From Pseudonocardiaceae bacterium (GTDB taxonomy: Bacteria > Actinomycetota > Actinomycetes > Mycobacteriales > Pseudonocardiaceae), in the NCBI GenBank assembly GCA_036402215.1, contig DASWTI010000205.1:1-61905 (forward strand): 61,905 nucleotides of DNA. Reading direction: 5' to 3'. The notes below the pieces were generated by a model. That model saw only the letters and a list, made by a program, of their open reading frames with translations. It was not told the DNA's origin and searched no databases. Below, piece by piece: positions 22,430-57,051 of this stretch (position 1 is the stretch's first letter; the number at the start of each line of letters is the position of its first letter). A program made the translations under genes and the position numbers.

Positions 22430-25400
22430 GAGCGTCCTCCTGCCTTGATGTGCTGGGAGATGAGCGGCTGGTTGGCGCGCGCCAGTTCCATCAGGCGATC
22501 GGCGACGGCGGCCTGCTCGGAGAACGGGAACAGATCGACGTCGTCGAGCGTGTGGATGATGTCCTTACGCAGCTCGTCCTGGGCGTGCGGGTTATGCCAG
22601 AACCGGACGATGCCAGCGTGCCGGGTCACTTCGACGACGATGTCCTCGGCCAGGTGCATGATGTCCACCCGAACCTCATCGGGCAACGTGGCGCCAGTCG
22701 AGAACTCGCTCTCCAGCAAGCCGTAGAACCGGGCCACCAGCGGATCCTCATGGACGCGCTGGTCGGCGGGCTCATCGACGACGTCGCGGAGCAGCACCTC
22801 AAGGGCGAGGCTGAGCTGGTCCCACTTGCCGGTCAGGGTCTTCAATATCTCGTCGAGCCGCTCGGAGAGCTTGGTGTAGCGGGCGGGGTCCTCGTCGAAG
22901 TTCTTCCGGATATGGAACCGGAGGGCGTGCTCCATCTCGGAGGCCTTGGCCTTGTCCGAGGTCAGGCCCTTGACCTTGGCGAGGAACTCCGGGTCGGTAA
23001 CTGAGACCGGTGGGATCTTGGTCGCGATGTCGAGAGCAGTGACATGCTCGTCGATCAGGGCGCGGACCTTCTCGCCGTAGAGAGACGCGTCGAAGTCCCC
23101 CATGCCGTCGTCGCGGTAGCGGCGCCGGGCGACCTTCTGGATGAGGCCGAAGCGCTTGGCATCCGCCACGAATGGGAGCGCCTCCGGGCGGGGCAGGATG
23201 GTGTCGAGCGTGCTCAGGAACTGCTTGAGCAGCACACCAAAGCGGGCTCGTAGAGCGTCGTCTGAGAGCAGATCGACGCAGGCCTCGATGTCCTCATCAA
23301 GGTCGAAGCTCTCGATGCCGGCCTGAGCGAAGAGTGCCGCCACTCGGGCGTGCCGATCACGCAGCTTCGGCACCTCGTCGGTGATCGAGGCCAGGGCGCC
23401 GATCGCGTCCTCGGCATCCTCGGGCGCATACGCCTGCAGCGCCTTCTGCAGATGGGCGCCGACCCCGAAGTAGTCGACCAGGAGCCCGGCCGACTTGCCC
23501 TGTGCCGTTCGGTTCACTCGCGCAATGGCTTGCAGCAGCTCGGCATCCTGGATGAAGCGGTCGAGATAGAGCGCCTGCTCGACCGGGGCGTCGAAGCCGG
23601 TCAGTAGCATGGTGCGCACCAGCAGGAAGGCGACGGGGCTGGCGTGCTCACCGGGCAGACCGAGCGGCTTCTTGAACTCGGCGATCACGGCGTCCTGACG
23701 CGCCTTGTCCGTCCACTGCGCCCACGCCGGGTCGTCGTTGTGGTCGCCCGAGATGACCGGCACGAAATCAAGGATGCGAATGAGCTCAAGCTGCGGCAGT
23801 GCACGGACCAGCACCTGGCGCCGCCGATCCAGCCCGTCGACGTCGAGGCTGCCGTCCTCGGCGCCACGCACGAGATGCTCCGGCAGGTTCTCGATCTGCG
23901 CTACCAATTCGTCCCGGGTCACGAGCAGCGCCTCGCGGTAGCGAACCGTCGCCAGCCTGCTGGTGGCGGACAGCTGCGCCTTGAAGCCACCGGGCAGCAC
24001 CGTCGAGACGTAGTGCCACAGGATCGACTTGGCCTTGGCAGCAATGAGCTTGGGCGCTTCCAACACAGCCCCGGTCGTGGCGTAGCGCGCCTTGAGCTTC
24101 TCGACCTCCTCGGCCGTGTGCTCGGCGAACATGTCCTCGAACAGCTCGTCCAGGTCGCTGCCACCAGCGACTGCGCCCTTGGCCGTGCGTCCCTCGTAGA
24201 AGATCGGGACAACGGCGCCGTCGTGCTCCGCCTGGCGGATCGTGTACTTGTCGATGAACGGGCCGAAGATGGCGTCGGTGCGCTTCTTGCCCTCGCGCAT
24301 GATCGGGGTGCCGGTGAAGCCAATCTTGGCCGCGTTCGGCAGCGCCGCCATGAGGTTGGCGTGCAGCGTCGAGGTCTGGGATCGGTGCGCCTCGTCGACC
24401 AGGATCACGATGGTCTCGTCGGTGTTGAGCACACCGAGCGCCTCGTTCGTCTCGTCGCCGGTCATCCGGGTCTCGCTCGCACCGGCGGCATCGGTGTCGC
24501 GGTACTTCTGGATCATGGCGAAGACGAGCGCCGGGCCCTTCTCGGCGAGGATCGTCCTCAGCTTACTGGTGCGCCGGGCTCGCTGGACGCCCTCGCCGGA
24601 CAGCTTGGCCGTTTCGGACAGCTGCTTCTCCAGGTCGGTCCGGTCGGTCACAACAACGACCTTGAAGGCACGCAGCACCGGGTCAGAGCGCATCGCCCGC
24701 ATCAGGAACACCATGGTGAGCGACTTACCCGACCCCTGCGTGTGCCAGATGAGCCCACCACGCCGGTCACTCTCGCCGTCCTGGGCGCGCGTCTTGCCGG
24801 TGCGTAGGCGCTGGAGCGCCCGACCAACGGCGCGGTGCTGCTGGTAGCGAGTGACGATCTTGATCCGCCGGCCGTTCACCTCGGTGAAGAGCGTGAAGTG
24901 CCTGACGATGTCGAGCAGGTTGGCCGGTGCCAACATCCCAGCGGTCAGCAGCTCCTGTCCGGTCAGCTCCGCCGCGGGCTTGCCGAGCTTCGCCGCCAGC
25001 TCGTCACGCGTGAGCGGAAAGGCGTCCTTCCACTCCAGGAAGTGCTCCGGGCCGGCCGTGAACGTCGCAACCCGCGCCTTGTCGCCGTAGGTCGAGACGA
25101 CGAACTGGTTGGTCCAGAACAACTGCTCGTTGCCCTCGGGCAGGCCAAGATGGCGCTGGTTGGCGTAGCGGCGCAGCTGGTTGATGCCCTCGGCCATGGG
25201 GTCGGTGATGTACGGGCTCTTGCACTCGATGACCACCAGCGGGATGCCGTTGACGAACAGCACGATGTCGGGAGCGACGAACTTCTTCGCCTGGCCGCCT
25301 GGCTCATCCACCCGAAACTGGCTGATCGCCAGGAAGTCGTTGTTGCCAGGATCGTCGAAGTCGATGAACTGGATGCGCTGCGACCGGCCCTGATCCCAGT

Positions 25401-25725
25401 CGGGTAGACCAGCCACGGTCACGCCCTCAAGAAGGCGCTCAGTCATCCGCTCATTGAGCTCGATGAGCTTGCCTACTTCAGAGCGCGTTAGCGACGAGAC
25501 GGCCTCGGCCAGCCGGGCGTCGTCCAGCCACAGAGCACCGTCCGGTCCCGGGTTAATCTTGCGCAAGGCGGCCCGGAGCCGATCCTCGAGGATTGAGCCA
25601 CGGAACGAGTCGCGCTCAGTCACCGAGGGGTCTGACTTGGATCCCTCGATCACCTGCCAGCCGAGACCGGTCAGCTGATCCAGCAGCGGCTTCTCGACCT
25701 CGGTGTATTCGGGACCCTGGTTCAT
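22426..25725 (-). CDS. hsdR: Type I restriction enzyme R subunit
   Basis: Walker A HTQGSGKSLTM and DEAH box ILVDEAHRSQ. The N-terminus [18 protein letters not shown] is typical. ATGA overlap with the hsdS stop. Confidence 0.9.
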   Translation of the reverse strand: MNQGPEYTEVEKPLLDQLTGLGWQVIEGSKSDPSVTERDSFRGSILEDRLRAALRKINPGPDGALWLDDARLAEAVSSLTRSEVGKLIELNERMTERLLEGVTVAGLPDWDQGRSQRIQFIDFDDPGNNDFLAISQFRVDEPGGQAKKFVAPDIVLFVNGIPLVVIECKSPYITDPMAEGINQLRRYANQRHLGLPEGNEQLFWTNQFVVSTYGDKARVATFTAGPEHFLEWKDAFPLTRDELAAKLGKPAAELTGQELLTAGMLAPANLLDIVRHFTLFTEVNGRRIKIVTRYQQHRAVGRALQRLRTGKTRAQDGESDRRGGLIWHTQGSGKSLTMVFLMRAMRSDPVLRAFKVVVVTDRTDLEKQLSETAKLSGEGVQRARRTSKLRTILAEKGPALVFAMIQKYRDTDAAGASETRMTGDETNEALGVLNTDETIVILVDEAHRSQTSTLHANLMAALPNAAKIGFTGTPIMREGKKRTDAIFGPFIDKYTIRQAEHDGAVVPIFYEGRTAKGAVAGGSDLDELFEDMFAEHTAEEVEKLKARYATTGAVLEAPKLIAAKAKSILWHYVSTVLPGGFKAQLSATSRLATVRYREALLVTRDELVAQIENLPEHLVRGAEDGSLDVDGLDRRRQVLVRALPQLELIRILDFVPVISGDHNDDPAWAQWTDKARQDAVIAEFKKPLGLPGEHASPVAFLLVRTMLLTGFDAPVEQALYLDRFIQDAELLQAIARVNRTAQGKSAGLLVDYFGVGAHLQKALQAYAPEDAEDAIGALASITDEVPKLRDRHARVAALFAQAGIESFDLDEDIEACVDLLSDDALRARFGVLLKQFLSTLDTILPRPEALPFVADAKRFGLIQKVARRRYRDDGMGDFDASLYGEKVRALIDEHVTALDIATKIPPVSVTDPEFLAKVKGLTSDKAKASEMEHALRFHIRKNFDEDPARYTKLSERLDEILKTLTGKWDQLSLALEVLLRDVVDEPADQRVHEDPLVARFYGLLESEFSTGATLPDEVRVDIMHLAEDIVVEVTRHAGIVRFWHNPHAQDELRKDIIHTLDDVDLFPFSEQAAVADRLMELARANQPLISQHIKAGGRS

Positions 25726-26855
25726 GAGGCGGCCTGTTCCGGAACGCGAACGCGACCGCTGAGCAGATCCCTTGCCAAGCTCTCCATCAGCTGAGTGAGT
25801 TTTGACAAGCGAGCCTCTTCGCAATTGAGGGCGAAGCGAGAGGCATCAAGTGCGTCGACCACCATTTCCGCCTGCCCTTTGGGCAGTATTGGGATCTGAA
25901 TGCGCCGCACGTCTCGAAGATTAATTCCGCGAACGGCGAGGCCTACCGTCTCTGAGTCGATGAAACGCTGAGCGTCGGGCGACGTTAGATAGTGCGCCGC
26001 GAACCGTTGAAGCGAATTGGGGAGAGATATCCGGGCCGTGTCCTGAGTAATATTTGCACCATTAAGCTGCGGCCCTACAATGCAGACCCGTCCAACCGTA
26101 CCCCGAATAGAGAGGAGGACATCTCCCGCCTGCAGACGGGAGCGCCGATACTCTCTATCGATCGAGGGGCTCGTAAGCAGAAGTCCGTCAGGACTGATCG
26201 ACCCGGTCTTCATGTCCTTGACCTTGACGACTGGCACGCCATTGGGAAAATGCTCACCGGGCATAAGGATTCCATAAACAATCGGGCGATTCCTGTCCAC
26301 GAGATCGCCGAGCGGTATCCATCTGCACGAGTTCCGAACTGAGTCTCCTTCGAAGAAGCTCATGAGAAGGCCTTTGTGGAGGTCCTGCAGCTTCTGCACG
26401 ACAAGGGAGCTAGATGCAATCTGCTCTTCGAGAACGTCCAAGATCGCTGCAATTTGCCGCTGTTCAATAATCGGCGGAACCTTAAAAGCGAGCCTGTAAA
26501 CATCGTTTCGGTTCAGACCCGGTACGCCGGTCGAGGAGTCTAGGCGCCGAAGCCCAAGCTGCGATAGCGCCCAATAGAACCACCTCAAGTCAAAGTTGCG
26601 AGCAACCTTCACGTAGTAGGCCGTATCAATAGGCCAGAAGTCATGTCGAGACCACGCTAGAGCGCCGACGGTACCCTTGCGTCCGACGATGATCCCAGGG
26701 CCCTTGATGAGCGCCGCACTGTGCCTCCCCACCTCTCCATTGGACCCAAAGACCGGGAACTCATCTCCGAAGCGAATCGTCGCGGGTAGCGCTGCGCCAT
26801 ATTCGAGCGTGGCAACATCACCAAGCGTAAGTGCACGCCATTTTCGATCACTCAT
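25722..26855 (-). CDS. hsdS: Type I R-M specificity subunit
   Basis: Two target-recognition halves separated by a conserved helical spacer ([20 protein letters not shown]; ..[14 protein letters not shown]). 8-nt overlap with hsdM. Confidence 0.85.
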
Positions 26856-29250
26856 AGCCGAGCTCCTTCAGGAACCCGGCGAGGGTTGCTGCGGCAGCGT
26901 CACGCTCAGCTTCCAGCGCCGAGAGAGGCGTTCGGTACTTGTCCCACCAGGTCTCGAAGGCTGAGACCACCAATCGGCGATGCCGAGTGATGCGGTCCTG
27001 CGCTTCTGCCAGGAGATCGTGCTGCAAGGCGTCGAGCACGATCTGACGAGCGGACGTGTCATCAAGCGCGGTACTGGCGGCCGCGAGCCGGTCGGCGAAA
27101 GCGGCCTTCTCGGCTTTGAGCTGCTTCTTGGTGGCCGTCAGCTTGGTCTTCAGCTTCTTCAGTTCGGCCAGCGAGAGGGCGTCCTCGCTCGGCTCGGCGT
27201 CCTCCTCGTCATCGGAGGCGGTCGCCGCCTTGATCGTGCCGTCCAACTCTGCGACCTCGGCTTCGAGCGTGGCCAGACGGTCGAGATACTCAGGCAGCAG
27301 TGCCCTGGCCACCTTGTGGTCGAGCGGGTTGACCTTCGCCTTCTCCTCCGCCAGGGCGTCGAGCACGGTGGCAACCCAAGCCTCGATGAGACCGCGGTAG
27401 CCGTGAGTCGCAAGCGCCTTGAGGTCAGGCAGGCTCTCGCCCCACCAGGACGCCACGATGCCCCGGATCGCAAAGGGATCGAGCAGCGGCGTGTCCGCCA
27501 GGGCGTCTCGGAACGTCTCGATCATCTCCTTGCGGAGATCAACGAGATCGCCGGGCGCCGCCAGCTTGTCGAAGCGCCCTTCCTGCGTCTCCCACCAGAG
27601 CCCGATGGCGTCGGGCACCTTGCTCTCCACACCGACCACACCAGCGTCTGACTCGATCCGGGTGCGTAGGTCGCGCCGCTCGGTCACGACGTCGGCAAAC
27701 TGCAGGTAGTCGTCGCTCCTTGGCGCCAGCAGGTGCTCGGGTACGAGGCCGTGGGCGGCAAAGAGATCCGCCTTGGCGCTCACCTCACGCTTCGGGATCC
27801 CGCCGTGCAGATGCGCGCGGACGTCCTGCGGCTCGGGAGGCGGCGTGGTGTCGACGTAGCGACGGATGTTGAGGTTGTCGTCGTTCTCGGCAAGCTCGGC
27901 GCGTGAAACCACACGGGCGAAGCCTGGGACGTCCTCGAAGGTGCGATACGCCGAGACGATCTTCTCGATATGCTCGGGCTCCAGGTAGTTCTGTGCCCTG
28001 CCCTCGCGGTAGTCGCGGTCCGCGTTGATGAATAGCACCTTCTCCTTGCGCTCGGCTGGCTTCGAGCCGAGTGGGCGCAGCACGAGGATGCAGGCCGGGA
28101 TGCCGGTGCCGTAGAAGAGCTGGGGACCGAGACCGATGACGGCCTCAATGAGATCGTCGTTCAGGAAGCCGGTGCGGATCTTCCCCTCATCCCCACCACG
28201 GAACAGCACGCCGTGCGGCATGACGGTCGTGACGAGGCCGCCGGGCCTGGTGACCGCCAGCATGTGCTGGACGAACATCAGGTCGGCCTTCTTGCCCTTC
28301 TCGGGCGTGTAGCCGTAGCGGAACCGCTCGGGGAACGGGATGGCGTCGGCTGAGTAGTTCATGGAGAACGGCGGGTTGGTGATCACCCGGTCGAAGCGCT
28401 GCAGCTCCCCGCCGGTGATGTGTGCCGGGTCCTCCAGTGTGCCGTCGTCGTTGTTCCGCAGGTCAGCGTCGGGGATGCCGTGCAGCAGCATATTCATCTT
28501 GGAGATGGCCCAGACGCTGCCGTCCTTCTCCTGGCCGGCGAGGGCAAGGTTGCGGCCGTCGCCGCCGGACTCCTCGACGTACTCCTTGGAGAGGATCAGC
28601 ATGCCGCCAGATCCCGTGCACGGGTCGTAGACGCTCATGCCGGGGTGCGGGTCGGCGATCTGCACCATGAGGCGGACGACGTCGCGAGGGGTGTAGAACT
28701 CCCCGCCCTTCTTGCCCGCCGAGTCGGCAAAGTCCCGGATCAGGTACTCGTACGCAGCGCCGAGGAGGTCGGGGAACTCAAAGTCCTGCTGGCGGAGCGG
28801 CACCTTGTTGAAGTGCATGATCAGCTCGCGCAGCTTCTTGTCGGACATCGACGACTGACCGATCTTGCGGTTGAAGTCGATGTGCTGCAGGACGCCGTCG
28901 AGCGGCCGGTTGCTGTGCTCCAGCTCCTCCAGAGCCTTGTTCAGGCCGCTGCCGACCGACTTGTGCAGGTGGTCCCGGATCTGGTCCCAGCGGGCGCGCT
29001 GCGGCACGTAGAACGTCCGATAGAACGCCGGGGACTCAGCCCGCTGCTCCGCCTCAGCCTGAGAGCGCCCGCGGGAGCGTTGCTCGGCGATGACCTGCTG
29101 CTGCTCAGCCTCGAACTGGTCCGAGGCGTACTTCAGGAACAGCATCCCGAAGATGTACTCCTTGTAGGCGGAGGCCTCCATGGAGCCGCGGAGTACATCG
29201 GCGGCAGCGAACAGATGCCGCTCCAACTGCGGCAATGTCAAGCGAGGCAT
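26848..29250 (-). CDS. hsdM: Type I R-M N6-adenine DNA methyltransferase subunit with a long C-terminal extension
   Basis: HsdM N-terminal domain ([10 protein letters not shown]), SAM motif [10 protein letters not shown] and catalytic NPPF. About 300 extra C-terminal residues with coiled-coil character. Confidence 0.9.
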
Positions 29251-29705: not shown

Positions 29706-30080
29706 GTGGATGGTGCGCGGTATCGGCGGCATGCGTCTGTGGGGAGGCGGTTGCGTCGGGGGGCGTTGTGGTTCACGGATGCCGAGTGGGCGGCGATCGT
29801 GCGGGCGGCCGAGGGTGCTGGGTTGCGGCCGACGGCGTGGGTTCAGCAGGTTGCGCACGAGACTGCAGCCGGGCGTGCCGGTCTCGGGCGAGACGAGACG
29901 GTGGTTCTCGTTGCCGAGTTGCGAGAGTCGCGGGCGGCGTTGGCGAGAGCGGGCGCGGCGGTTCGCGGTCTCGCGAGAGCTGACGCCGGGCCGGGTGAAC
30001 GAGTGTTGGCGTTGGTGGCGGGCACGGTTCATCGGCTGGATGCGGTGTTGCTGCGAGTGCATCGGCGGCTCGCGGGGTGA
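29706..30080 (+). CDS. MobC-like relaxosome accessory protein
   Basis: LWFTDAEWAAIVRAAEGAGLRPTAWVQQVA (ribbon-helix-helix style). GTGA overlap with the relaxase start. Its own start is uncertain. Confidence 0.6.
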   Translation: MDGARYRRHASVGRRLRRGALWFTDAEWAAIVRAAEGAGLRPTAWVQQVAHETAAGRAGLGRDETVVLVAELRESRAALARAGAAVRGLARADAGPGERVLALVAGTVHRLDAVLLRVHRRLAG

Positions 30081-31645
30081 TCGCGAAGGTCGTTCGGGGG
30101 TGGCGACCGGCCGGGCTGATCGTCTACTTGTTCGGGCCGGGGAAGTACGAGGAGCACCGCAATCCGCGGGTTGTGGCGTCCTGGGACGGAACGCCGTGGC
30201 TGCATCAACCCCCGGGTCTGGCATCGGTGGAGTTGGACGGCGAGGTGCTGCCGGCCGGCGAGTTCGATCTGGACCTCCGCCGGCTGATCGCGACCATGCA
30301 GGATCCGGCCGTTCTCGCCGGTCTGCCCCTGACCGCTCCACCGCCGGTGAGCGCGGAGTGGCTGCCCTACCTGCGTTCCGGCGGGCGACTGCCGGCCGGC
30401 GCGCCGCAGTGGCTGCCGCATTACCGGTACGACGCCCATGCGGACGCGGTTGTGCGCCGGCCCGGGTACGTCTGGCACTGCCCGGTTCGGCTCCATCCGG
30501 ACGACCCGACACTCACCGACGAGCAGTGGCAGACCATCGCGGAACGGCTCATGCGCGCCACCGGCATCGACCAGGCCGGTTGCCGGTGGATCGCCGTCCG
30601 GCATGCCGACGACCACATCCACCTCATGGCCACCCTCGTTTCTGAGACCTCCGGGCGACGCTTCCACCCGTACCGCGACTACCTGAAGCTCCGCCGCGAA
30701 TGCCAGGCCATCGAACGTGAACTCGGCCTCGTCCGCACCGCCGACGCCGACAAGACCGCCACACGAACACCGACCCGCGCGGAGAAAGGCAAGGCGGAAC
30801 GCCTCGGCCACACCATCACCGCCCGCGAAGAACTGCACCGCCGGGTCGCCCACGCCGCAGCAACCACCGCAACGGCCGACGACTTCCTGAACGAACTCCG
30901 CAACGAAGGGCTCCGGCCTCACCTCGCCCGCGATCCAGGCGGTGCCATTCGCGGCTACTCCGTCGCCCTGCCCGGCGACGTCACCCGGCTCGGCGAACCC
31001 GTCCGCTACTCCGGCGGACAACTGGGCCACGACCTCACCTGGCCCAAGCTTCTGCAGCGCTGGGCACAGGTTCCCACCGATTCACGACTCCACCGTCGCA
31101 CCGGTAGTCGCGCGACGCCCGCGGAGCGACGTGAGACCTACCGCGATGCCGCACGTCTCGTGAACGTGGCGACCACAGCGGTCCGATCCGGCGACGACGT
31201 CGACGGGATCGCCCACGCCACCAACGACCTTCTCGCCGCACTCAGCCACTCCATCGACGGCTACGACCACGGCCCGACGACCCACGCATTCATCCAGTTC
31301 GACCGCGCGGCCCGCACCCCACACCGCGCCGTCCCCACCGACATTGGGGCCCTTGCCCAACGACTCCGCCGCACGTCCCGCCACCTCGGCCACATCGGCC
31401 GAATCACCGGCCGAGGCAACGAGAAATTCGCTGTGTCGACGCTGACGATCGCCGTCGCCGGGCTGCTCGTCGAGATCGCCGCCTGGCAGCAGCTCAAGGC
31501 ACGCGACCACCAGAGCCGCGCGGCTCGCAACGCGGGCGTCACCCTCGGCAGGCGTCCGCAGACGACCCGCACCGAGCAAGCTCCCACTTCAGGTCGGCGC
31601 CCGGCGACTCCCTGGCAAGGCCGCCCGTCCCGGCGAACACCATGA
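30077..31645 (+). CDS. Relaxase / mobilisation nuclease (MobA/VirD2-type)
   Basis: MIAKVVRGW..GLIVYLFGPGK N-terminus. Histidine motif IAVRHADDHIHLMATLV. Confidence 0.75.
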   Translation: MIAKVVRGWRPAGLIVYLFGPGKYEEHRNPRVVASWDGTPWLHQPPGLASVELDGEVLPAGEFDLDLRRLIATMQDPAVLAGLPLTAPPPVSAEWLPYLRSGGRLPAGAPQWLPHYRYDAHADAVVRRPGYVWHCPVRLHPDDPTLTDEQWQTIAERLMRATGIDQAGCRWIAVRHADDHIHLMATLVSETSGRRFHPYRDYLKLRRECQAIERELGLVRTADADKTATRTPTRAEKGKAERLGHTITAREELHRRVAHAAATTATADDFLNELRNEGLRPHLARDPGGAIRGYSVALPGDVTRLGEPVRYSGGQLGHDLTWPKLLQRWAQVPTDSRLHRRTGSRATPAERRETYRDAARLVNVATTAVRSGDDVDGIAHATNDLLAALSHSIDGYDHGPTTHAFIQFDRAARTPHRAVPTDIGALAQRLRRTSRHLGHIGRITGRGNEKFAVSTLTIAVAGLLVEIAAWQQLKARDHQSRAARNAGVTLGRRPQTTRTEQAPTSGRRPATPWQGRPSRRTP

Positions 31646-40018: not shown

Positions 40019-41003
40019 CTAGACGAGTAATGCGTAAGTCCGGGGTGGTGACCGGAGACGGACGAAGGGTGTTCAAGATCAGTTTGTGACGACCGACCTG
40101 AACACCCTTCTCACCGCACTCTACGTCAAGATCGACGACCACCTCGCCGGCAGGCCCCGTCAGGGCAGACCGCCGAAACTTACCGACGCCGAGCTGGTCA
40201 CCCTGGCCGTGGCCCAAGCCCTGCTCGGCTTCACCTCCGAGGCCCGTTGGCTGCGTTTCGTGCCCGCCCGGATGCCCGGCGCGTTCCGCTACCTGCCTGG
40301 CCAGTCCGGCTACAACCGCCGACTGCGTGGCGCTTTGCCGGTGGTCAAGCAGGTCATACGGCTGGTGGCCGCCGACACCGACCTGTGGACCGACACCACC
40401 TGGATCGTCGACTCCACCCCCGTCGAATGCGGACGCTCCCGCCCCACTGTCAAGCGCTCGGAGCTGGCCGGCTGGGCCAAATACGGCTACTGCCGCTCGC
40501 ATTCGCGCTGGTTCTGGGGATTGCGCCTGCACCTGGCCTGCACCCCGGCCGGGCTGCCCGTCACCTGGGCCCTGGCCGATCCGAAGATCGACGAGCGCCA
40601 GGTGCTCATGGCGATCTGCGACCACGAACCCCACCTGCTCGGCGACCGACCCGGCCTGCTGATCATCGCCGACAAGGGCTACGTCTCCCGCGAACTCGAC
40701 CGCTACCTCGTCGACCGCGGAGTCCGACTGATCCGACCCTCCTACCGCAACCGCACACCACATCCCGGTGAACCGCTGCTCAAGTCGATCCGCCAGCTCA
40801 TCGAGTCGGTCAACGACACCCTCAAAGGTCAGCTGAACCTCGAACAGCACGGCGGACGCACCATCGAGGGCGTCGGTGTCCGCATCGCCCAACGCCTTCT
40901 GGCCCTGACCGCCGCGATCTGGCACAACCGCACCACCGGCCAACCCATCACCCGATCCCTGACCACCTACGACCACTGACCGAGTTAGGAATTACTCGTC
41001 TAG
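40019..41003 (+). mobile_element. Intact IS982-family insertion sequence
   Basis: Imperfect terminal inverted repeats: ctagacgagtaatGcGtaaGtc on the left, and the reverse complement of gagttaggaattactcgtctag on the right. The first 13 bp are identical. A single transposase ORF lies inside. Confidence 0.8.
40086..40979 (+). CDS. IS982-family DDE transposase
   Basis: LTALYVKIDD N-terminus. DDE context IVDSTPVEC, IIADKGYVS and ESVNDTLKGQL. Confidence 0.85.
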   Translation: MTTDLNTLLTALYVKIDDHLAGRPRQGRPPKLTDAELVTLAVAQALLGFTSEARWLRFVPARMPGAFRYLPGQSGYNRRLRGALPVVKQVIRLVAADTDLWTDTTWIVDSTPVECGRSRPTVKRSELAGWAKYGYCRSHSRWFWGLRLHLACTPAGLPVTWALADPKIDERQVLMAICDHEPHLLGDRPGLLIIADKGYVSRELDRYLVDRGVRLIRPSYRNRTPHPGEPLLKSIRQLIESVNDTLKGQLNLEQHGGRTIEGVGVRIAQRLLALTAAIWHNRTTGQPITRSLTTYDH

Positions 41004-41064
41004 GCCGTGGCCAGGCCGTCGGACGAGGCATCAATCATAAGCTTGGGCCACCGACCGTTCTTAC

Positions 41065-41981
41065 CTACGCCTTCGGTGCCCACTCCACACGGAACGTAAC
41101 CCCGGGAAAAGTGAAGTCGCAATCCGCCTGCCATCCCTGCCGCTCACCACCAGCCACAAGCGAAATGGGAACCTCACCCCCGTAAAGCTGCATGTCTAGA
41201 TCACTGACCGCATCTCCGGTTAGCCAGAAGGAAGTCGCCAGGCATGGGCTAGACAATACGAATGGAAAGCGGCCCATGGCGGACTGATAGGTAACCGCCC
41301 TCGCCTCTTCAGATCGATAGGCCCCGGCGGAGCTTCAGGAAAGGAAAGTTGCGCAGTGACGATCTGACAGCTTCCGTCAGGACGGCGAATCGCCGCCCGA
41401 GCCAGTTCCTGCCGATCAAACTCCTGGGTCTCGATCACGTCCGCCCTTTGCCCTGCACTATGGCCACGAACCTCGACCCGCATCATCTCAAAATGGCTGG
41501 CCGCTTGCCCAGCCATTGAGCCGATCACCCAAGGCTTTGGGTGATTCCACGGACCACTAGAAACATTAACAGAGTCGAACACGTACTTCCCCGTTACCTT
41601 CAGTGCCACCCCCGGTTCATGCCACTCAAAGGAGAGGGTGAAGCGTACTCTTACGTGGACCATAGCAACGGCCTGGAGTTTCGCCTGAAGACCGCCAATA
41701 TATTCCTGCGGCGCATTGACGCCGAAAATTGCTTGCATCGAGAGGCGAGCAACGTCACGAACCAGCGCCAACTTGAGCAAGCGATCCACCGTGAGTCCTA
41801 GAATGCCAGCCACCAGGAGCGCTTCGACGACCGCAGTCACCCCCTCCGACCACCATCCGTCGCCGTACTCGTGGGTAGGCCCGGCCAACAACAAGAGTGT
41901 CGTGGAGAGCACCACCATTCCGGCTAGCCAGGCCCGGGTGATGCCCCGATGAGGTCGCATGAGGGACAGTATTGCCGCCAA
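41065..41981 (-). pseudogene. Lower-GC membrane protein (2 TM helices plus a soluble domain), either frameshifted near 41230-41300 or two overlapping ORFs
   Basis: ORF 41220..41981 has TM segments AWLAGMVVLSTTLLLLAG and VTAVVEALLVAGILGLTV. It continues in another frame as ORF 41065..41277. Many A/T-ending codons compared with neighbours. Confidence 0.45.
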
Positions 41982-42106
41982 GGCCGCTAGCGGGAAACAC
42001 CGTCAACTTGATCTTGATCATCTGCGAACAGCGTCACCTCGTTGCGCTCGTCGTTGAGGACCCGACGGTGGTGGCGTGATTGCGCTCGCGCACGGTGCCG
42101 CCTGGG

Positions 42107-44713
42107 ATGATGTCCGGCATGGCGTCACCGAGACCGCGGCGGGTGTTCCTCAGCTGCACCAGTGAGCTGCGCAAGTACCCTGAGGTGTTCTCCTTCGCCG
42201 ATGCCGTCAAGGCTGCGGTCGACAACGTCGGGGACCGCATAGCCCTGGACGGAGTGACCGGGGCCGATGTCTGCGTGCTGCTGGTCGGGTTCCGATACGG
42301 CGCGCCAGCCCTCGACCGGCCCGAGCTGTCGGTGGTGGAGCACGACTTCGAGACGGCGAGCGCACTCGGCCTGTCTCGGCTGGTCTTCTTGCTGAACGAG
42401 GACGTCATCGGACCGGCGCGCCTGTTCATCGATCCGGAACACGGCGACCACCAGTTCGCCTTCCGCCGTCGACTGACCGAGAGCGCGGCGGTCGTGACCA
42501 TCTCTACGCCCGACGAACTGGAACATGCGGTACGGCTGACGTTGGGCGACCTCCCTAGGGCCAGGACCTTCACGCGGCGTGTCTGGAACATCCCGCCACG
42601 CAACCCCCGCTTCGTCCGTCGACAGAACGTCCTCGACCACCTCGCGAACTCCGGCGGCCCGCGCCTGCTCACCGGCCCAGGGGGAATGGGCAAGACCGCG
42701 GTGGCGATCGAGTTCGCGCATCGCAACTCCGATCGCTACGACCTCGCTTGGCTGGTGAGGCCGGGAGCGGGCGAGTCGGCGCGCCGGTCGCTAGCTGACT
42801 TGGCGGTCGCCCTAGAGCTGGTCGATCCGGCGGTGTCGACCGGACGGGCGCTGGAGGCGCTGCGCATCTACCTGCGTTCACGCCGCAACTGGCTGCTGAT
42901 ATTCGACGAGGTGGACGACGTTGACGGGATTGAGGCGTTCCTGCACCTCGACGGAGATGTCCTCGTCACCAGTCGCCGTAAGCTTCCAGGTGCGTTCAAA
43001 CACGTCGAGGTGAACCAGTTCCTGCGGTCGGAGTCGGTAGAACTCCTGCGTAACCGGCTTCCCGACCTCCGACTGGCCCAGGCGGAGGGCATCGCCACTG
43101 CCGTGGCCGATCTGCCATTGGCGCTGCACGCCGCCGCGGCGTACCTGGAGGACACGCGGATGACTCCCGAGGAGTACCTCGACAAGCTGCGCCGTGGCAC
43201 CGAGGACCTGCTGGCCACCGATGACCTGCTGGCCATTCGCGTCCAGGCGATCATCGCTTCGGCGCTCGACCGCCTCGCTGAGGAAAGCCCATCCGCGTCG
43301 CTGTTGCTCACCGCCGCCGCCTGGCTCGCCCCGCAGGCCGTGCCGCTGTACCTGTTCACCAAACAGGCGGAAACCCTGCTGCCCACGCCGTTGGGACGGG
43401 CGGTGACCGAACCGCTGGAACTCGCCGAGACGGTCTCTCGATTAGGTAATAGTTCGCTGGTCGCGGTCACGCCGGACAGCCTGACGGTCCACAACATGAT
43501 CCGGGAGCTGCTGCGGCGCCGGAGCGAGGACGCCGAGCCACAGGTCGGCGGCTGGCCAGCGATTGTCGCCCGGCTGCTGCGCGCGGCGTTGCCGGACGAT
43601 CCGGTCGCCCATCCCGAGTTGTGGCGCGACCTCCTGCCGCATGTGCTGACCGCCACGGACAAGAACCGCCGGCTGCACGAGGCGGTCGACCATGTCATCT
43701 GGTTGCTGGACCGGGCCTACCGGTACCTAACCCACGAGGGCGAGCACGAACGCGCGCGCGAGGTCCGCGATCGGGCGACCGCGTGGTCCCGGTCCAGGGC
43801 GGCCGGGGAGGCGACTCGCACTCTGGTTGATGTCGAACGGGCCTACCAGCGGCTGAGCAGCGGGAGCCCGCCCGATCACCCCGACGTGCTGGCGGCGGCG
43901 AGTGATCTGGCCGCGGCGTTGCAGGAAACCGGGCGCTACCACGAAGCCCGCCAGCTGTACCAACGTGTGCTCGAGGCACGGAAGGTGAACCTGGGCGAAA
44001 CCCATCGCGAGACCCTTGTCGCGAAAGCCAATCTGGCGGCGCTCCTGCGCGAGATAGGCGAGTACCACCTCGCCCGCGACCACGAGGCATCCGTGGCGGC
44101 GTGGTTCCTCAAGCTGCACGGCGAGGACGACCCGGACACCTTGACGGCCGAGACGAACCTGGCTGTGACGCTGCGCGAACTCGGCGAGCACCAGCGGGCG
44201 CACCGGCTCGACCGGTCTATCCTGAAGCGGTCGCGAAGGGTGTTCGGCGAGTACCACCCGAGGACCCTGCTTGCGATGACCAGCTTCGCCGCGGACCTGG
44301 TCGCGCTGGGTGACTACCACGAAGCGCGAGCCTTGAGCGAGCAGGCGTGGGAGCGTTATCGCCAGGTGCTTGGACCCGACCACCCCGACACGCTGGTAGC
44401 CGCGACAAGCCTGGCTGCGATCCTCTCCGCGCAGGGGGAGCACGAGCGGGCGTTTCGAGTGGACGAGGACACGTTCACCCGCTACCGGCGCGTGCTTGGC
44501 GACGACCACCCGCACACCCTGTTGTCGGCCAACAATCTCGCGGCCGACCTGCGGGAACTGGGTAGGTTCGAGGAGGCGGCCCGGCTGGATCGGCAGACGT
44601 GGGAGAGGTTCCGGCGCGTGCTTGGCGAGGACCACCCGGACACCGTCCGATCGGCGGGCAACCTGGCGCTCAGCCTCAAAGCGCGCGACGAGTCGAAACG
44701 GGCCAGGTCATGA
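42107..44713 (+). CDS. STAND NTPase: DUF4062-like N-terminal domain, NB-ARC, then TPR (TPR_10/12-type) repeats
   Basis: RVFLSCTSELRKYPE...CVLLVGFRYG...EHDFETA..LVFLL is DUF4062-like. P-loop LTGPGGMGKTAVAIEFA. Repeated ...HPDTL(x)A(x)NLA... TPR units run to the C-terminus. The start is uncertain (42080-42119). Confidence 0.8.
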   Translation: MMSGMASPRPRRVFLSCTSELRKYPEVFSFADAVKAAVDNVGDRIALDGVTGADVCVLLVGFRYGAPALDRPELSVVEHDFETASALGLSRLVFLLNEDVIGPARLFIDPEHGDHQFAFRRRLTESAAVVTISTPDELEHAVRLTLGDLPRARTFTRRVWNIPPRNPRFVRRQNVLDHLANSGGPRLLTGPGGMGKTAVAIEFAHRNSDRYDLAWLVRPGAGESARRSLADLAVALELVDPAVSTGRALEALRIYLRSRRNWLLIFDEVDDVDGIEAFLHLDGDVLVTSRRKLPGAFKHVEVNQFLRSESVELLRNRLPDLRLAQAEGIATAVADLPLALHAAAAYLEDTRMTPEEYLDKLRRGTEDLLATDDLLAIRVQAIIASALDRLAEESPSASLLLTAAAWLAPQAVPLYLFTKQAETLLPTPLGRAVTEPLELAETVSRLGNSSLVAVTPDSLTVHNMIRELLRRRSEDAEPQVGGWPAIVARLLRAALPDDPVAHPELWRDLLPHVLTATDKNRRLHEAVDHVIWLLDRAYRYLTHEGEHERAREVRDRATAWSRSRAAGEATRTLVDVERAYQRLSSGSPPDHPDVLAAASDLAAALQETGRYHEARQLYQRVLEARKVNLGETHRETLVAKANLAALLREIGEYHLARDHEASVAAWFLKLHGEDDPDTLTAETNLAVTLRELGEHQRAHRLDRSILKRSRRVFGEYHPRTLLAMTSFAADLVALGDYHEARALSEQAWERYRQVLGPDHPDTLVAATSLAAILSAQGEHERAFRVDEDTFTRYRRVLGDDHPHTLLSANNLAADLRELGRFEEAARLDRQTWERFRRVLGEDHPDTVRSAGNLALSLKARDESKRARS

Positions 44714-45990
44714 GCAACCCTGGGTGGCGACCGCCGGGTCGGCCGCGGGTCCGGCACGGCTACTACACCGGCGGTCCGCTCGTCGGCGACTTCTACGGCC
44801 TGTCGCACGAGGCAGCCATCATGGAGTCCGGGGTGCGACAGGTCTTCACCCCGCACCAACCAGTGCAACCAGGCGAGGAACTGGCCGGCCGCAAGCGCGA
44901 GGTCCGCAAGCTCGTCGAAGTGCTGAACACGCCGGGCCAGCACGCCCTGCTCTACGGCGACCGCGGGGTAGGAAAGAGCTCGCTGGCCAACGTCGTGTCG
45001 CACGCGTTCCGGCAAGCCGCAGGCCGCGACTACTTCGTCAAACGGTGCGACCATACGGACACGTTCGAGTCGATCTTCCGGGACCCGCTGGCTGCGGTTG
45101 GCGTGGATGTGCTGCGCGTCGAGTACGTCACGCAGGAGATCACGACGCGGAAAGCGGAGGTCGCCGCGTTCGACGTGCTCACGGCTGGCCGGGAGCGGCA
45201 GCACGGCCAGTCGACCACCTACCGACCAGAAGGCACCATGGGTGCGTCCGAGGCGGCCCGGCACCTCGCTGGCCTGAGCGGCTTCATGTTGATCGATGAG
45301 CTGGACGGGGTGGGCGACCCCGTGGCCCGGCGCAAGGTCGCCGAACTGATCAAGCAGCTCAGCGACCTTGGGTCGGCGTTCAAGCTGCTGCTGGTCGGCA
45401 TCGCCGAGACCGCCACGGACCTGACCGGCGCGCACCCATCGGTCCAACGGTCGTTACGCGAGACCAAGCTGCACCTGATGGCCGAGGAAACCCTGCGGAA
45501 CATCATCGCGCGCGGCGCGCACCGGCTGGGGTTGTCGTTCGACGACGACGTGATGACGGCGATCGCCCGGTTGAGCGCCGGCTATCCCCATTTCACTCAC
45601 CTGTTGGCGCTCAAGTGCGCCGAGAACGCCATCCGCAATGGGCAGCGACGAGTGGAGCCCTCCGATCTGCCGCTGGCGATGACCATTGCCGTGGAGGACG
45701 CGGAGGGTACGCTGCGGCAGGCCTACCACTCAGGCGTGCGCGCGTCGGCCGAAGGCCACCGCGCGGTGCTGACCGCCGCCGCATCGCTCGACGGCATCGA
45801 ATTCACCACCGCCCAGTTGCGCGACGCGCTTCCACCCGCACTCAACCCGGCGGGACCGCTGCGGCGGTTGGTGTCCGACGACGGAGCCACCATCCTGCGG
45901 CGCACCACCAAGGGCGTTTACCGCTTCAGCGACCCTCGGATGCGCAGCTACATCCGGATCATCCACCTCATGATCGACCCGATCGGGTAG
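44710..45990 (+). CDS. ORC/Cdc6-like AAA+ ATPase with a C-terminal winged-helix-like region
   Basis: ATGA overlap with the STAND stop. Walker A YGDRGVGKSSLANV and Walker B FMLIDELDGV. Lid AGYPHFTHLLALKCAENA. Confidence 0.75.
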   Translation: MSNPGWRPPGRPRVRHGYYTGGPLVGDFYGLSHEAAIMESGVRQVFTPHQPVQPGEELAGRKREVRKLVEVLNTPGQHALLYGDRGVGKSSLANVVSHAFRQAAGRDYFVKRCDHTDTFESIFRDPLAAVGVDVLRVEYVTQEITTRKAEVAAFDVLTAGRERQHGQSTTYRPEGTMGASEAARHLAGLSGFMLIDELDGVGDPVARRKVAELIKQLSDLGSAFKLLLVGIAETATDLTGAHPSVQRSLRETKLHLMAEETLRNIIARGAHRLGLSFDDDVMTAIARLSAGYPHFTHLLALKCAENAIRNGQRRVEPSDLPLAMTIAVEDAEGTLRQAYHSGVRASAEGHRAVLTAAASLDGIEFTTAQLRDALPPALNPAGPLRRLVSDDGATILRRTTKGVYRFSDPRMRSYIRIIHLMIDPIG

Positions 45991-54096: not shown

Positions 54097-55134
54097 CTAC
54101 ATGGAGCTCGTCGCTGCGGTGCTCGGCCGGGTTGCGCCGAGATGATCGCCAGACAGACGGACAGTGGCCAGGGTGATAAGGGTGCCGGAACGGGGCGCTT
54201 CGATCATCTGCCCCTCCCCCACGTACAGAGCAACGTGGTGAACACGTAGGCCGGTGCCCCAGAACAGCAGGTCGCCGGGTTGGAGTTGGTCGACCGGGAT
54301 GGGGTTGTTGCGGGTGGCGTTGTACTGCTCTTGGGCCGTACGCGGCAGGGTGATGGTGCCGTTGCTGCCTTGGTGGAAGGCGTGGCGGACGAGGCTTGAG
54401 CAGTCGAAGCCGATGACGTGGGTGTCGGGTGGCATGCCTCGGCTGGGGCCGGTGAGGGTGCCGCCGCCCCAGGCGTAGGGGGTGCGGCCGACGTGGGCCT
54501 GGGCGGCGGCGATGACGGCGGTGATGAGGTCGTCGGCCGGGGGTGCGAGGGCGTAGGTGGTGGTGGCCAGGTCGCGGACCTTGCGGACGTACAGGGTGGT
54601 TTCGGGGAAGGGTGGGATGCCGTTGTGGCGGCGGACGTTGCCGGGGCCGGCGTTGTAGGCGGCGAGCGCCAGGTCAACGAGCTGGCCGGTAAGGCTGGTC
54701 CAGCCGCGGAGCAGGTCGACGAGGTGGCACATGTACCGGGTCTGGGTGGGGATGGCGTCGGCGGGGTCGCGGGGGTTGGCGGTGCCGTCGCCGTTGTGGT
54801 CGCGGCCGAACTCGGCCCAGGTGCCGGGGATGAACTGGGCAAGGCCGGTGGCCTGGGAGCCGGTGTTGTAGGCGTCGGGATTCCAGGAGGATTCGACGTG
54901 GATCTGGGCGGCGAGCAAGGGCGCGGTGACTTCTGGGCAGGCCGCCGCTGCGACGCTGAGCGGTGCGAGCGCCCAGGTGGGGATCGCGGCTTCGTTGAGT
55001 TGGGCGGCAACCGGTGCCGGTCGGCCGGGGAGGGCCGTGGTGGTGGCGCCCATGGTGAGGAGGAGCACCAGCAGCATCGCCACCGGCAGCGCGGCAATCG
55101 CACCAATGGCGGGCAGCGGCGATGGCCGGTTCAT
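54097..55134 (-). CDS. Secreted cell-wall hydrolase: lytic transglycosylase (SLT) plus NlpC/P60 domains
   Basis: TM/signal AIAALPVAMLLVLLL. SLT motifs HVESSWNPDAY..ATGLAQF. NlpC/P60 motifs GFDCSSLVRHAF and HHVALYVG. Confidence 0.8.
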   Translation of the reverse strand: MNRPSPLPAIGAIAALPVAMLLVLLLTMGATTTALPGRPAPVAAQLNEAAIPTWALAPLSVAAAACPEVTAPLLAAQIHVESSWNPDAYNTGSQATGLAQFIPGTWAEFGRDHNGDGTANPRDPADAIPTQTRYMCHLVDLLRGWTSLTGQLVDLALAAYNAGPGNVRRHNGIPPFPETTLYVRKVRDLATTTYALAPPADDLITAVIAAAQAHVGRTPYAWGGGTLTGPSRGMPPDTHVIGFDCSSLVRHAFHQGSNGTITLPRTAQEQYNATRNNPIPVDQLQPGDLLFWGTGLRVHHVALYVGEGQMIEAPRSGTLITLATVRLSGDHLGATRPSTAATSSM

Positions 55135-55643
55135 GAGCTGCTGGTGTCGGCGATGTTGACCTGGCTGATGCGCCAGCCGGCCGGGGTGGAGCGGACGGTG
55201 CAGTAGAAGACCAGGGATGGCAGGGATTGCTGCCATCCGTTTTCGGCGACGGCGGTGCGGGTGACGATGACCCCGGCCGGCTGGTCGCTGCCGTCGAGGA
55301 CCGGTGGCGGGTCATCGTGCACGGGCTCGGCGGTGGCACGGATCCGGGCGCGGTGTTCGTGTAGTAGCGACCAGGTGGGGTCGGTGCCGTGGCCGGCCAC
55401 CTGGTCGACCAGCCCGGAGGTTCCGTATTCACGGGCGGCGCGGAGCCGGGCCGCGGACGAGTCGGCGTCCACCGTGGCGTCGATGCTGACAGCGGCGACG
55501 GCGAAGCGAGCACAGGTCTCGGTGACCGCGGATCGAATGTCGGCCACCGGGCGGGCGGGTGGCGCCGGCGGCGGCGAGCTGTATCCACCCGCCGCGATCA
55601 GCGCGGTGACGGCGATGGCTGTGCTGCGCCAATGGTTGTCCAT
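55131..55643 (-). CDS. Hypothetical exported or anchored protein of the conjugative block
   Basis: MDNHWRSTAIAVTALIAAGG N-terminus. ATGA overlap with the downstream hydrolase gene. Confidence 0.5.
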   Translation of the reverse strand: MDNHWRSTAIAVTALIAAGGYSSPPPAPPARPVADIRSAVTETCARFAVAAVSIDATVDADSSAARLRAAREYGTSGLVDQVAGHGTDPTWSLLHEHRARIRATAEPVHDDPPPVLDGSDQPAGVIVTRTAVAENGWQQSLPSLVFYCTVRSTPAGWRISQVNIADTSSS

Positions 55644-56865: not shown

Positions 56866-56979
56866 GCCACGCGATCCCTTCCAAGATCGCCGGCAGAGCC
56901 GCCGTGGACGCCTCACCGAGAGGCATAGAGTGGGGTTGACCTGCGGAAACACCCGCTGAAGTGGATCGTGCCAACTGGG

Positions 56980-57051
56980 TGCCCCCGGCAGGATTCGAAC
57001 CTGCGCTCCCGCCTCCGGAGGGCGGTGCTCTATCCCCTGAGCTACGGGGGC
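56980..57051 (-). tRNA. tRNA-Arg (anticodon CCG)
   Basis: Reverse complement is GCCCCCGTAGCTCAGGGGATAGAGCACCGCCCTCCGGAGGCGGGAGCGCAGGTTCGAATCCTGCCGGGGGCA. It has a 7-bp acceptor stem, GTTCGAATC T-loop and anticodon loop CTCCGGA. CCA is not encoded. Confidence 0.85.

Follow-up and report, generated by a model that had tools for sequence, protein, structure and literature searches.

We analyzed a stretch of 61,905 nucleotides (nt), contig DASWTI010000205.1 of a Pseudonocardiaceae bacterium, which we call the window and to the whole of which all coordinates refer. Our subject is a pair of adjacent genes, here named A and B, that an earlier note had put forward as a candidate defence module. Positions 42080-45990 are filled by two open reading frames (ORFs) on the same strand, in a region where the G+C content is around 0.66-0.69, and the G+C content at third codon positions (GC3) is 0.84 in both, a coding signature. 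Protein A has an N-terminal domain of the NIR (DUF4062) kind, a nucleotide-binding core and tetratricopeptide repeats (TPR), and protein B is a small AAA+ ATPase (Table 1). The ATG at 42107 opens gene A, and the N-terminus encoded from there, MMSGMA..PRP..RVFLS, is conserved among homologues. Both ORFs, as well as the ATGA in which the stop codon of A overlaps the start codon of B, are as the earlier note had given them, and every motif it had quoted for the two proteins was located in the translations. This overlap implies that the translation of A and B is coupled. Upstream of A, a scan of 41982-42106 found no sigma-70 consensus, a result that is uninformative in actinomycetes, and a scan for terminators was likewise uninformative.

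The two genes form a genuine co-inherited module. We searched with A (tblastn) all 246 loci under study and found an A-like gene solely immediately upstream of B, in four loci of Saccharothrix (L001-L004), one of Lentzea (L081), and two metagenomic contigs (L085 and L086). In Nocardia nova (L080 3188-6004), the partner that lies upstream of B with a 4-nt overlap is a 938-aa (amino acid) protein with two TetR modules (N+C) followed by TPR_12 repeats. A lack of synteny elsewhere, which the earlier note had named as refuting a module, was thus not observed, given the arrangement in Saccharothrix, Lentzea, Nocardia nova, and the two metagenomic contigs. Altogether, B is found behind a TPR protein in nine loci, all of them in a small clade of actinomycetes, and every junction that we read has a 4-nt overlap, either ATGA or GTGA. 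Among the seven full pairs, identity between loci is 34-52% for A, the faster evolving of the two, and 61-80% for B, and the identity matrices of the two proteins correlate (Pearson r=0.74). The pair travels as a cassette, given that its flanks are not the same in two Saccharothrix species. Identity to the B of the window is 59% or more in every paired B, and the relatives at 46-57% identity are solo, with no TPR neighbour. Canonical NIR-STAND genes from outside the paired clade are not followed by B. In metagenome and viral collections we found no further members of this clade: the best of 162 metagenome relatives is 51% identical, and the viral ones are at most 41% identical. The pairing is narrow but real.

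A DUF4062 domain had been proposed at the N-terminus of A, and the homology holds. A profile made from the seven N-termini of the paired clade retrieved 359 proteins, nearly all with PF13271, of which the top ones are 42-51% identical (E-values down to 5e-43). On this sequence comparison, the N-terminal domain of A is a genuine though divergent DUF4062. However, the window protein scores below the cutoff of the Pfam model itself (PF13271, 17.7 bits vs 24.7, over model positions 37-82 only), and DUF4062 is no longer a domain of unknown function. Three 2026 preprints (10.64898/2026.09.04.749371, 10.64898/2026.05.01.722283, 10.64898/2026.06.25.731849) identify it as a TIR-like NADase and rename it NIR. 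They describe it as the effector of an Avs2 protein with a DUF4062-STAND-TPR architecture, and further report it from Swarozyc, Evangelion, Vulcan, the two-gene Vesta system, and other NLR-like proteins, whose repeats vary. For NIR, the defence-neighbourhood score of Le Mouellic et al. (10.64898/2026.09.04.749371) is 20% against 3.9%. The NADase effector role is given there as proven in Avs2, Swarozyc, Vulcan, and Vesta (10.64898/2026.09.04.749371, 10.64898/2026.05.01.722283), with one essential Glu per NIR, which is E97, E98, E103 or E108 depending on the protein (E97 in KpSwz, E108 in PsAvs2), and with abortive infection via NAD+ depletion as the outcome. The architecture of A is therefore already of a known kind, of which A is a new and divergent member.

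The candidate for the catalytic residue of A is E78 (codon 42338-42340), which is invariant across an alignment of 30 sequences. It lies in a motif LSYTELEFE that reads LSVVEHDFE in the window, and an equivalent Glu is kept in six of the seven full-length pairs. The AlphaFold2 (AF2) model of the N-terminal domain (pLDDT 84.8) has a beta-alpha-beta fold in which E78 stands at the start of the helix that follows strand 55-60. Foldseek searches with this model gave as top matches nucleoside 2'-deoxyribosyltransferases and the TIR domain of plant SNC1, both weak (E~2e-3, TM-score 0.45-0.52). Judging from the alignment, E78 is probably equivalent to the published catalytic Glu; once a deletion described below is added back, its position is ~94-97 in the canonical numbering. 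A is thus a putative NADase. Separately, many "standalone" DUF4062 proteins of 180-280 aa from actinobacterial metagenome-assembled genomes look like the frameshifted N-termini of NIR-STAND-TPR or NIR-STAND-WD40 proteins, and lie among transposases (L244 7001-8845, L245 7001-10659).

The rest of A is an NB-ARC-TPR body. The nucleotide-binding core has a P-loop (GPGGMGKT, residues 190-197, 42674-42697, including K196), a Walker B motif (LLIFDE, residues 263-268, with D267/E268), and a GLPL-type LPLA at 336. The assignment of this core to NB-ARC, made in the earlier note, stands on the P-loop and on the NCBIfam model NF040586 ("FxSxx-COOH system tetratricopeptide repeat protein"), which matches residues 162-773 with 495 bits vs a cutoff of 300. 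In contrast, the Pfam NB-ARC model remains below its cutoff for the window protein (18.2 vs 23.5); homologues pass it. The Pfam matches to AAA_22 and DUF7779 are weak, the latter below threshold. The TPR array was said to hold about ten repeats; we counted seven, starting at residues 590, 632, 674, 716, 758, 800, and 842, at intervals of exactly 42 residues, the last unit being truncated. Its matches are strong (TPR_10 2e-54, TPR_12 7e-53) and, in the PDB, point to the TPR of kinesin light chains (E-values down to 4e-22). We found no tandem repeats at the DNA level under the array, so the repetition is confined to the protein. A has the features of a STAND NTPase of the AP-ATPase/NB-ARC clade, namely the P-loop, the Walker B motif, a helical domain of GLPL type, and repeats towards the C-terminus, and its reading as a tripartite protein, with a domain in the effector position, an NTPase, and TPR, is supported. 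Among relatives of this NB-ARC-TPR body, the N-terminal effectors are swapped and include TIR, TIR_2, DUF4062, PNP_UDP, and CbiA.

Protein B is above the gathering threshold of the Pfam nSTAND1 model (PF20703, 32.2 bits vs 27.1, residues 60-287) and passes that of AAA_16 (35 vs 32.6), and its homologues are labelled "nSTAND1 domain-containing NTPase" by NCBI. Since B is formally an nSTAND1-family NTPase, A and B are arguably two STAND-type NTPases in tandem. The Walker A motif of B is GDRGVGKS (residues 83-90, 44956-44982, including K89) and its Walker B motif is FMLIDELD (residues 192-199, 45283-45306, including D196/E197). It had been described as an ORC/Cdc6-type AAA+ ATPase with a lid and a winged helix, which our models uphold at the level of the fold and only there. 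The AF2 model (pLDDT 79.7, pTM 0.73) has a helical lid on an AAA+ base and ends in a domain resembling a winged helix, and the top Foldseek matches are the archaeal Orc1/Cdc6 structures 2qby_A (9.7e-10), 1fnn_A, and 2v1u_A, over ~420 columns and with TM-scores of 0.45-0.53, followed by PAB2304, RuvB, and CED-4. B is thus predicted to have an ORC/Cdc6-like three-domain fold, whereas the Orc1/Cdc6 sequence model TIGR02928 fails (17.9 bits vs a cutoff of 181.3). The disordered N-terminal tail has a motif of the type W-R-x-x-G-R-x-R in most paired B proteins. A search for B among the sequences of solved proteins in the PDB returned only marginal matches to the P-loop and lid of RuvB. None of the known defence ATPases that we considered accounts for B: BrxC, BrxD, and PARIS AriA have no PADLOC match, and those of IetA, mad3, and mad8 to the B family are weak and mostly cover the P-loop.

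A single polypeptide joins the two halves of the module. P0241 (L246 595-4170) is a 1,191-aa protein encoded by one ORF, in which NB-ARC, DUF7779, and TPR_10/12 are followed by a linker and a complete B domain, without the NIR domain. Its linker has ~65 residues and is acidic, and its B domain is 48% identical to the B of the window. The contig is metagenomic, 6 kb long, with 59% GC. A frameshift artefact is unlikely because both alternative frames of the 65-codon linker hold stops. Using P0241 as query we found no further fusions of NB-ARC-TPR to B, as no other match covers more than 66% of it. TPR is the only domain type common to the three kinds of partners of B, i.e., the NIR-NB-ARC-TPR proteins, the TetR-TPR protein, and the fused NB-ARC-TPR, which points to the TPR array as the probable interface with B.

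B belongs to a large family of phage proteins of unknown function, phrog_6841 (9.4e-55 for the B of the window, 2.5e-182 for a homologue in a P2 prophage). When clustered at 50% identity, the family has 4,814 clusters at E<=1e-3, 2,894 at E<=1e-10, and 1,210 at E<=1e-30, and almost all its members have 390-450 aa. An alignment of 19 sequences from different phyla has a mean column identity of 57%, with an invariant Walker A, Walker B, and GYPHFTH...KCAE motif. We searched 79 genome loci for other conserved partners of B. Its neighbours are highly variable, and the genes that recur in tight upstream position encode ribonucleotide reductase, aldehyde dehydrogenase, GroEL, and carbamoyltransferase, housekeeping genes that are insertion neighbours and not partners. 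Given these variable neighbours and housekeeping upstream genes, B is typically a lone insertion. In six unrelated genomes (L018, L025, L026, L028, L031, and L063, including Psychrobacter, Litchfieldella, and Thioalkalicoccus), a solo B lies just downstream of the gene for the large subunit of ribonucleotide reductase, an arrangement that could reflect either a hotspot of insertion or mere chance.

Many members of the family are carried by mobile elements. In P2-like prophages, B is located in the classic P2 old/tin cargo hotspot, flanked on one side by the replication endonuclease gpA, together with a Tum or DinI-like gene, and on the other by the portal gene. For example, it has this position in a Salmonella phage-plasmid (L084 5879-7096) and in E. 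coli TK3888 (L089 7001-8224), and such copies occur in 4 of 5,426 complete E. coli genomes. In temperate actinophages, B was found in the variable central region: between the lysis cassette and the integrase of the mycobacteriophage Kevin1 (a Charlievirus; gp30, L082 4938-6206), where it adjoins a HicB-like antitoxin gene, and between the tail genes and the integrase of Gordonia phage Cashline (gp34, L083 4974-6176). Among plasmids, pCM2L of Clavibacter has B near a DUF4238 gene and a Fic gene. A distant relative (28% identity, 463 aa) occurs in pMT1 of Yersinia pestis (L240 5959-7350), after parA-parB and before the ArdA/methylase leading region, and is conserved in 63 records of Yersinia plasmids. 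Finally, 70 contigs of IMG/VR have a relative of B. The possibility that the AAA+ gene belongs to a neighbouring transposon or replication module did not survive these observations: B is solo cargo in P2-type prophages, actinophages, and plasmids. The closest model among defence candidates is PDC-S59, a single-gene PADLOC candidate with a 428-position model. Its length is like that of B, and both are single-gene ATPases linked to defence candidates. Other members of the B family match it over ~250 residues with 17-37 bits (E-values of 1e-4 to 5e-10), scores so low that the family is a distant sister of PDC-S59 and not part of it. No mention of PDC-S59 was found in the literature searched.

The window is a mobile and conflict island. 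The insertion sequence (IS) and the membrane gene that had been noticed next to the pair were both found, the latter as an ORF with two transmembrane helices (2-TM ORF) in a patch of low G+C (0.59) at 41000-42000. The decay that had been ascribed to the island is not visible: the type I restriction-modification (R-M) operon is intact, since its three genes fit full-length PADLOC models. Together, the relaxase, the NlpC/P60+SLT hydrolase, and the tRNA-Arg gene suggest an integrative conjugative or mobilisable element with a boundary near 57 kb. The window also encodes an HTH-TPR protein, an S9 peptidase, a GntR regulator, HTH (helix-turn-helix) proteins, a YaaC-like protein, and ParB_N-like genes. 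A nucleotide search of PLSDB with the region 29.5-54.4 kb had the IS982 element as its sole match. The subtilase and the TPR-CHAT protein form a further pair that resembles a conflict system within the same window.

Table 1. Features of the A-B locus and of the rest of the window.
Feature	Position	Strand	Description	Evidence
Gene A	42107-44713	+	868 aa; NIR(DUF4062)-like + NB-ARC/AP-ATPase + TPR; NLR-like STAND protein	ORF, translation, GC3, NF040586, TPR matches
NIR/DUF4062-like domain of A	42107-42556	+	residues 1-150; TIR-like NADase family	
NB-ARC/AP-ATPase core of A	42590-43546	+	residues ~162-480; nucleotide-binding oligomerisation core	
TPR array of A	43874-44710	+	residues 590-868; seven TPR_10/TPR_12 units; presumed sensor or partner-binding domain	
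A/B stop/start overlap	44710-44713	+	ATGA	sequence
Gene B	44710-45990	+	426 aa; minimal AAA+ ATPase, ORC/Cdc6-like / nSTAND1; lid; winged helix at the C-terminus	Pfam, phrog_6841, AF2, Foldseek
N-terminal tail of B	44710-44799	+	basic, Trp-containing (MSNPGWRPPGRPRVRHGY...); disordered	pLDDT <50 for residues 1-25
Insert of B	45121-45228	+	residues 138-173; disordered, poorly modelled; between strand 2 and the Walker B strand	
Winged-helix region of B	~45742-45969	+		
Divergent intergenic region	41982-42106	.	presumed promoter; between the 2-TM ORF and gene A	ORF map
2-TM ORF	41220-41981	-	two N-terminal hydrophobic helices; divergent to gene A	no Pfam match
IS982-family transposase	40086-40979		next to the A-B pair	
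MobA/VirD2-type relaxase	29999-31642			
Type I R-M operon	22426-29250	-	hsdR 1132 aa, hsdS 377 aa, hsdM 800 aa	all full-length to PADLOC models
S8 subtilase	3117-4625	+	adjoins the TPR-CHAT protein	PADLOC match for the subtilase only
TPR + CHAT protein	5523-8147	+	875 aa; CHAT, caspase-like protease	
NlpC/P60+SLT cell-wall hydrolase	54100-55236			
tRNA-Arg(ccg) gene	56978-57051			

Among known systems, the closest to A are the NIR-bearing Avs proteins. PsAvs2 (WP_273864396.1; Le Mouellic et al., 10.64898/2026.09.04.749371) has the architecture of A, with DUF4062 as the N-terminal effector followed by a STAND NTPase and, at the C-terminus, by repeats of TPR type; the two also share the conserved Glu, which opens the helix behind the third strand, and the location of the gene on a mobile island. 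However, A is of the AP-ATPase/NB-ARC (NF040586) type and has TPR_10/12 repeats like those of kinesin light chains instead of the Avs2 sensor. Its NIR is a divergent actinobacterial subfamily with a deletion of ~16 residues. The NF040586 model stands for AP-ATPase+TPR proteins with an N-terminal TIR that accompany FxSxx peptide-processing / VMAP-ternary systems (Kaur et al. 2020, PMC7159879). These proteins have in common with A the NB-ARC+TPR body and an effector in the same N-terminal position, but theirs is of TIR type whereas that of A is NIR, and A is followed by B, which is foreign to the FxSxx system. In the Pfam scan of ~40 window ORFs there were no genes for FxSxx precursors, radical-SAM/SPASM proteins, metallopeptidases, or vWA/ternary components, small precursor ORFs not having been specifically sought. 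This agrees with the earlier remark that no radical-SAM or FxSxx-type genes are nearby. Given the lack of these partner genes, the FxSxx label on A reflects its NB-ARC-TPR body only.

The modelled fold of B has the arrangement of BREX BrxC/BrxD and of archaeal Orc1/Cdc6, in which an AAA+ base that carries an insert behind strand 2 is combined with a helical lid and a winged helix. BrxD is a precedent of a standalone ORC/Cdc6-type ATPase within a defence system (PMC12839542). Unlike in BREX, B has no PADLOC match to BrxC/BrxD, no PglZ, PglX or other BREX genes are nearby, and its Pfam class is nSTAND1. The A-B operon does not seem to be described in the searchable literature, and the B family is uncharacterised and has no model in PADLOC v2. 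The consulted portions of the PsAvs2, Swarozyc (10.64898/2026.05.01.722283), and Evangelion (10.64898/2026.06.25.731849) preprints mention no coupled AAA+/nSTAND1 partner gene. Likewise, the phylogeny section of a 2026 Nature survey of 589 STAND clades (PMC13581612) does not include such a pair, and the terms DUF4062, Cdc6, operon, and two-gene do not occur in the survey. The expectation that no described system pairs a STAND protein with an ORC-like AAA+ ATPase therefore agrees with the literature searched, some of it consulted in part.

Plants and animals have paired sensor/helper NLRs, e.g., NAIP-NLRC4 and RRS1-RPS4. Like these, A and B are two adjacent STAND-type NTPases of which one evolves fast (A) and the other is conserved (B). 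This is a pure analogy and implies no homology beyond the STAND/AAA+ core. Moreover, A and B differ from such pairs: B lacks sensor repeats as well as any effector that can be recognised, and the effector is on A, the fast-evolving member.

We lean, by a modest margin of belief, towards the reading that A and B are a co-transcribed, translationally coupled two-gene anti-phage module on a mobile island, most likely an abortive-infection system. A would be an NLR-like sensor-executioner whose TPR array holds the NB-ARC core off until a ligand is bound. The ATP-dependent oligomerisation of A would then gather the NIR domains, leading to NAD+ hydrolysis and to the arrest of the infected cell. B, from a family that is normally solo cargo of prophages and plasmids, would in this actinomycete lineage have been captured by a TPR protein, of which it became the stoichiometric partner. 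Its most likely part is that of a second sensing or licensing subunit, facing nucleic acid or nucleoprotein, and it would signal to A through the TPR array of the latter, possibly via its own Trp/Arg-rich N-terminal tail. That this divergent NIR is an active NADase, that the pair senses phage, that A and B touch, and that the signal runs from B to A are suppositions. In favour of the reading are the signs that the pair is a unit, the NLR-like make-up of A with its effector domain, the distribution of the B family, which is that of defence cargo, and a window that also holds an intact type I R-M, a TPR-CHAT protein, a subtilase, a relaxase, and an IS.

Several observations weigh against this reading of A and B as a coupled immune module. 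B is solo in nearly all genomes and can do without A, for even the unpaired relatives nearest to it (46-57% identity) lie beside no TPR gene. The fusion was met just once, on a contig of 6 kb. The pair of two Saccharothrix genomes lies outside any defence island, surrounded by ordinary genes of signalling and housekeeping. The tail of B, considered as a marker of pairing, turned out to be one only in part, since some solo actinobacterial members have basic tails too. As for the effector, ~16 residues are missing from the NIR of the window between D43 and R44 relative to the canonical relatives, including the near-invariant DMAYF segment (DMAYF..AR..P..VC). The deleted segment is probably the betaB/BB-loop/alphaB region, where the whole paired clade is divergent, and the pair of L004 has Asp instead of the equivalent of E78. 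Given the sub-threshold Pfam score, the deletion, and this Asp, NADase activity may be altered or lost. PADLOC-DB v2.0.0 returned no family for A and no Avs/NLR model, and the match of the window B to PDC-S59 (model PDLC05049) is partial, with 22.4 bits over model positions 168-308 of 428. Finally, PADLOC identified defence genes among 122 neighbour ORFs of 18 solo B loci (among L005-L036), namely mad8 (three times), mad3, mad2, SspH, AriA, RT-protease, and several methyltransferases, which is suggestive of a defence role for the B family, but the count has no null model.

The main rival sees A and B as autonomous defence systems of one gene each, stacked in one transcription unit in this lineage, as clustering is frequent among defence genes, and uncoupled both physically and in their regulation. 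We consider this unlikely, though it deserves more credit than the alternatives that follow. It is in line with the solo occurrence of B in almost all of the ~1,200 clusters of its family and in every prophage and plasmid example, with the fact that NIR/TIR-NB-ARC-TPR proteins are normally single-gene systems, and with the small size and rarity of the paired clade, to which the 162 metagenome relatives added no members. Yet mere stacking does not lead one to expect a 4-nt overlap that persists although A falls to 34-52% identity, nor the co-divergence of A and B, nor the upstream partner of Nocardia nova, swapped for another TPR protein with the overlap retained, nor the existence of an NB-ARC-TPR-B fusion in a single polypeptide. 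As the pairing is restricted to a narrow clade and an autonomous B is by far the commoner state among genomes, A and B may nevertheless act independently.

The pair could also be involved in signalling other than immunity. It would then be a STAND-type switch that regulates the physiology or development of actinomycetes, as AfsR- or MalT-like NB-ARC/TPR regulators do, with B as its DNA-binding AAA+ output and the NIR as a degenerate, non-catalytic scaffold. The surroundings of the Saccharothrix pair, which comprise two-component genes, partner-switching genes (RsbR/STAS/SpoIIE), and an adjacent lexA, the TetR DNA-binding domains on the partner in Nocardia nova, and the divergence and deletion of the NIR in the paired clade are all compatible with such a role, and defence and non-defence STAND clades are interspersed according to the survey cited above (PMC13581612). 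We nonetheless judge it improbable: the flanking genes differ between species and thus provide no conserved pathway context, the mobile island that holds the pair of the window also carries R-M and IS, all but one of the full-length pairs conserve the Glu that corresponds to the catalytic one, and the B family is overwhelmingly prophage and plasmid cargo. Least of all do we believe that B is an ATPase by which a mobile element is maintained, replicated or partitioned (an ORC-like initiator or ParA-adjacent protein) and that it adjoins A incidentally: this would suit its ORC/Cdc6-like fold with a winged helix, the place of the distant pMT1 homologue directly after parA-parB, and the relaxase and ParB_N-like genes of the window, but B is in the cargo slot of P2-like prophages although gpA already supplies replication, it is inserted alone by housekeeping genes (for ribonucleotide reductase, GroEL, and aldehyde dehydrogenase) in many genomes, the paired copies of Saccharothrix are chromosomal with no mobile-element genes around, and the Orc1/Cdc6 sequence model is far from being reached.

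Beyond the reading of A and B as a coupled anti-phage module, a bolder proposal can be made, which we advance tentatively. The family phrog_6841 would be a new and widespread autonomous anti-phage ATPase, ORC/Cdc6-like and DNA-engaging, that in actinomycetes became coupled to an NLR-like NADase, serving it as a conserved helper or co-sensor. Bacteria would then have a two-NTPase immune pair, composed of a fast-evolving sensor-executioner and a conserved partner, and the TPR array of A would read out B, for instance through the Trp/Arg tail of the latter, besides, or instead of, a phage protein.

These results have consequences at several levels. Concerning annotation, the label "FxSxx-COOH system TPR protein" of the Prokaryotic Genome Annotation Pipeline (PGAP) falls on effector-swapping NLR-like proteins that have no context of ribosomally synthesized and post-translationally modified peptides, and it would be the name given to A. 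Independently of A, our analysis flags phrog_6841 as a large, conserved candidate family of single-gene defence systems, present across P2-like prophages, actinophages, Yersinia pMT1-type plasmids, and gut-phage contigs, of which the copy in an E. coli P2 prophage, WP_019842449.1, is a directly testable member; this may be the most useful practical outcome. As for the pair itself, the usual view of NLR-like defence proteins is that each is a system of one gene, complete in itself. A functional coupling of A and B would add a layer of control, giving an example of an NLR-like NADase of bacteria whose action requires, or is tuned by, a further and minimal STAND/ORC-like ATPase, in parallel to the sensor/helper NLR pairs of eukaryotes.

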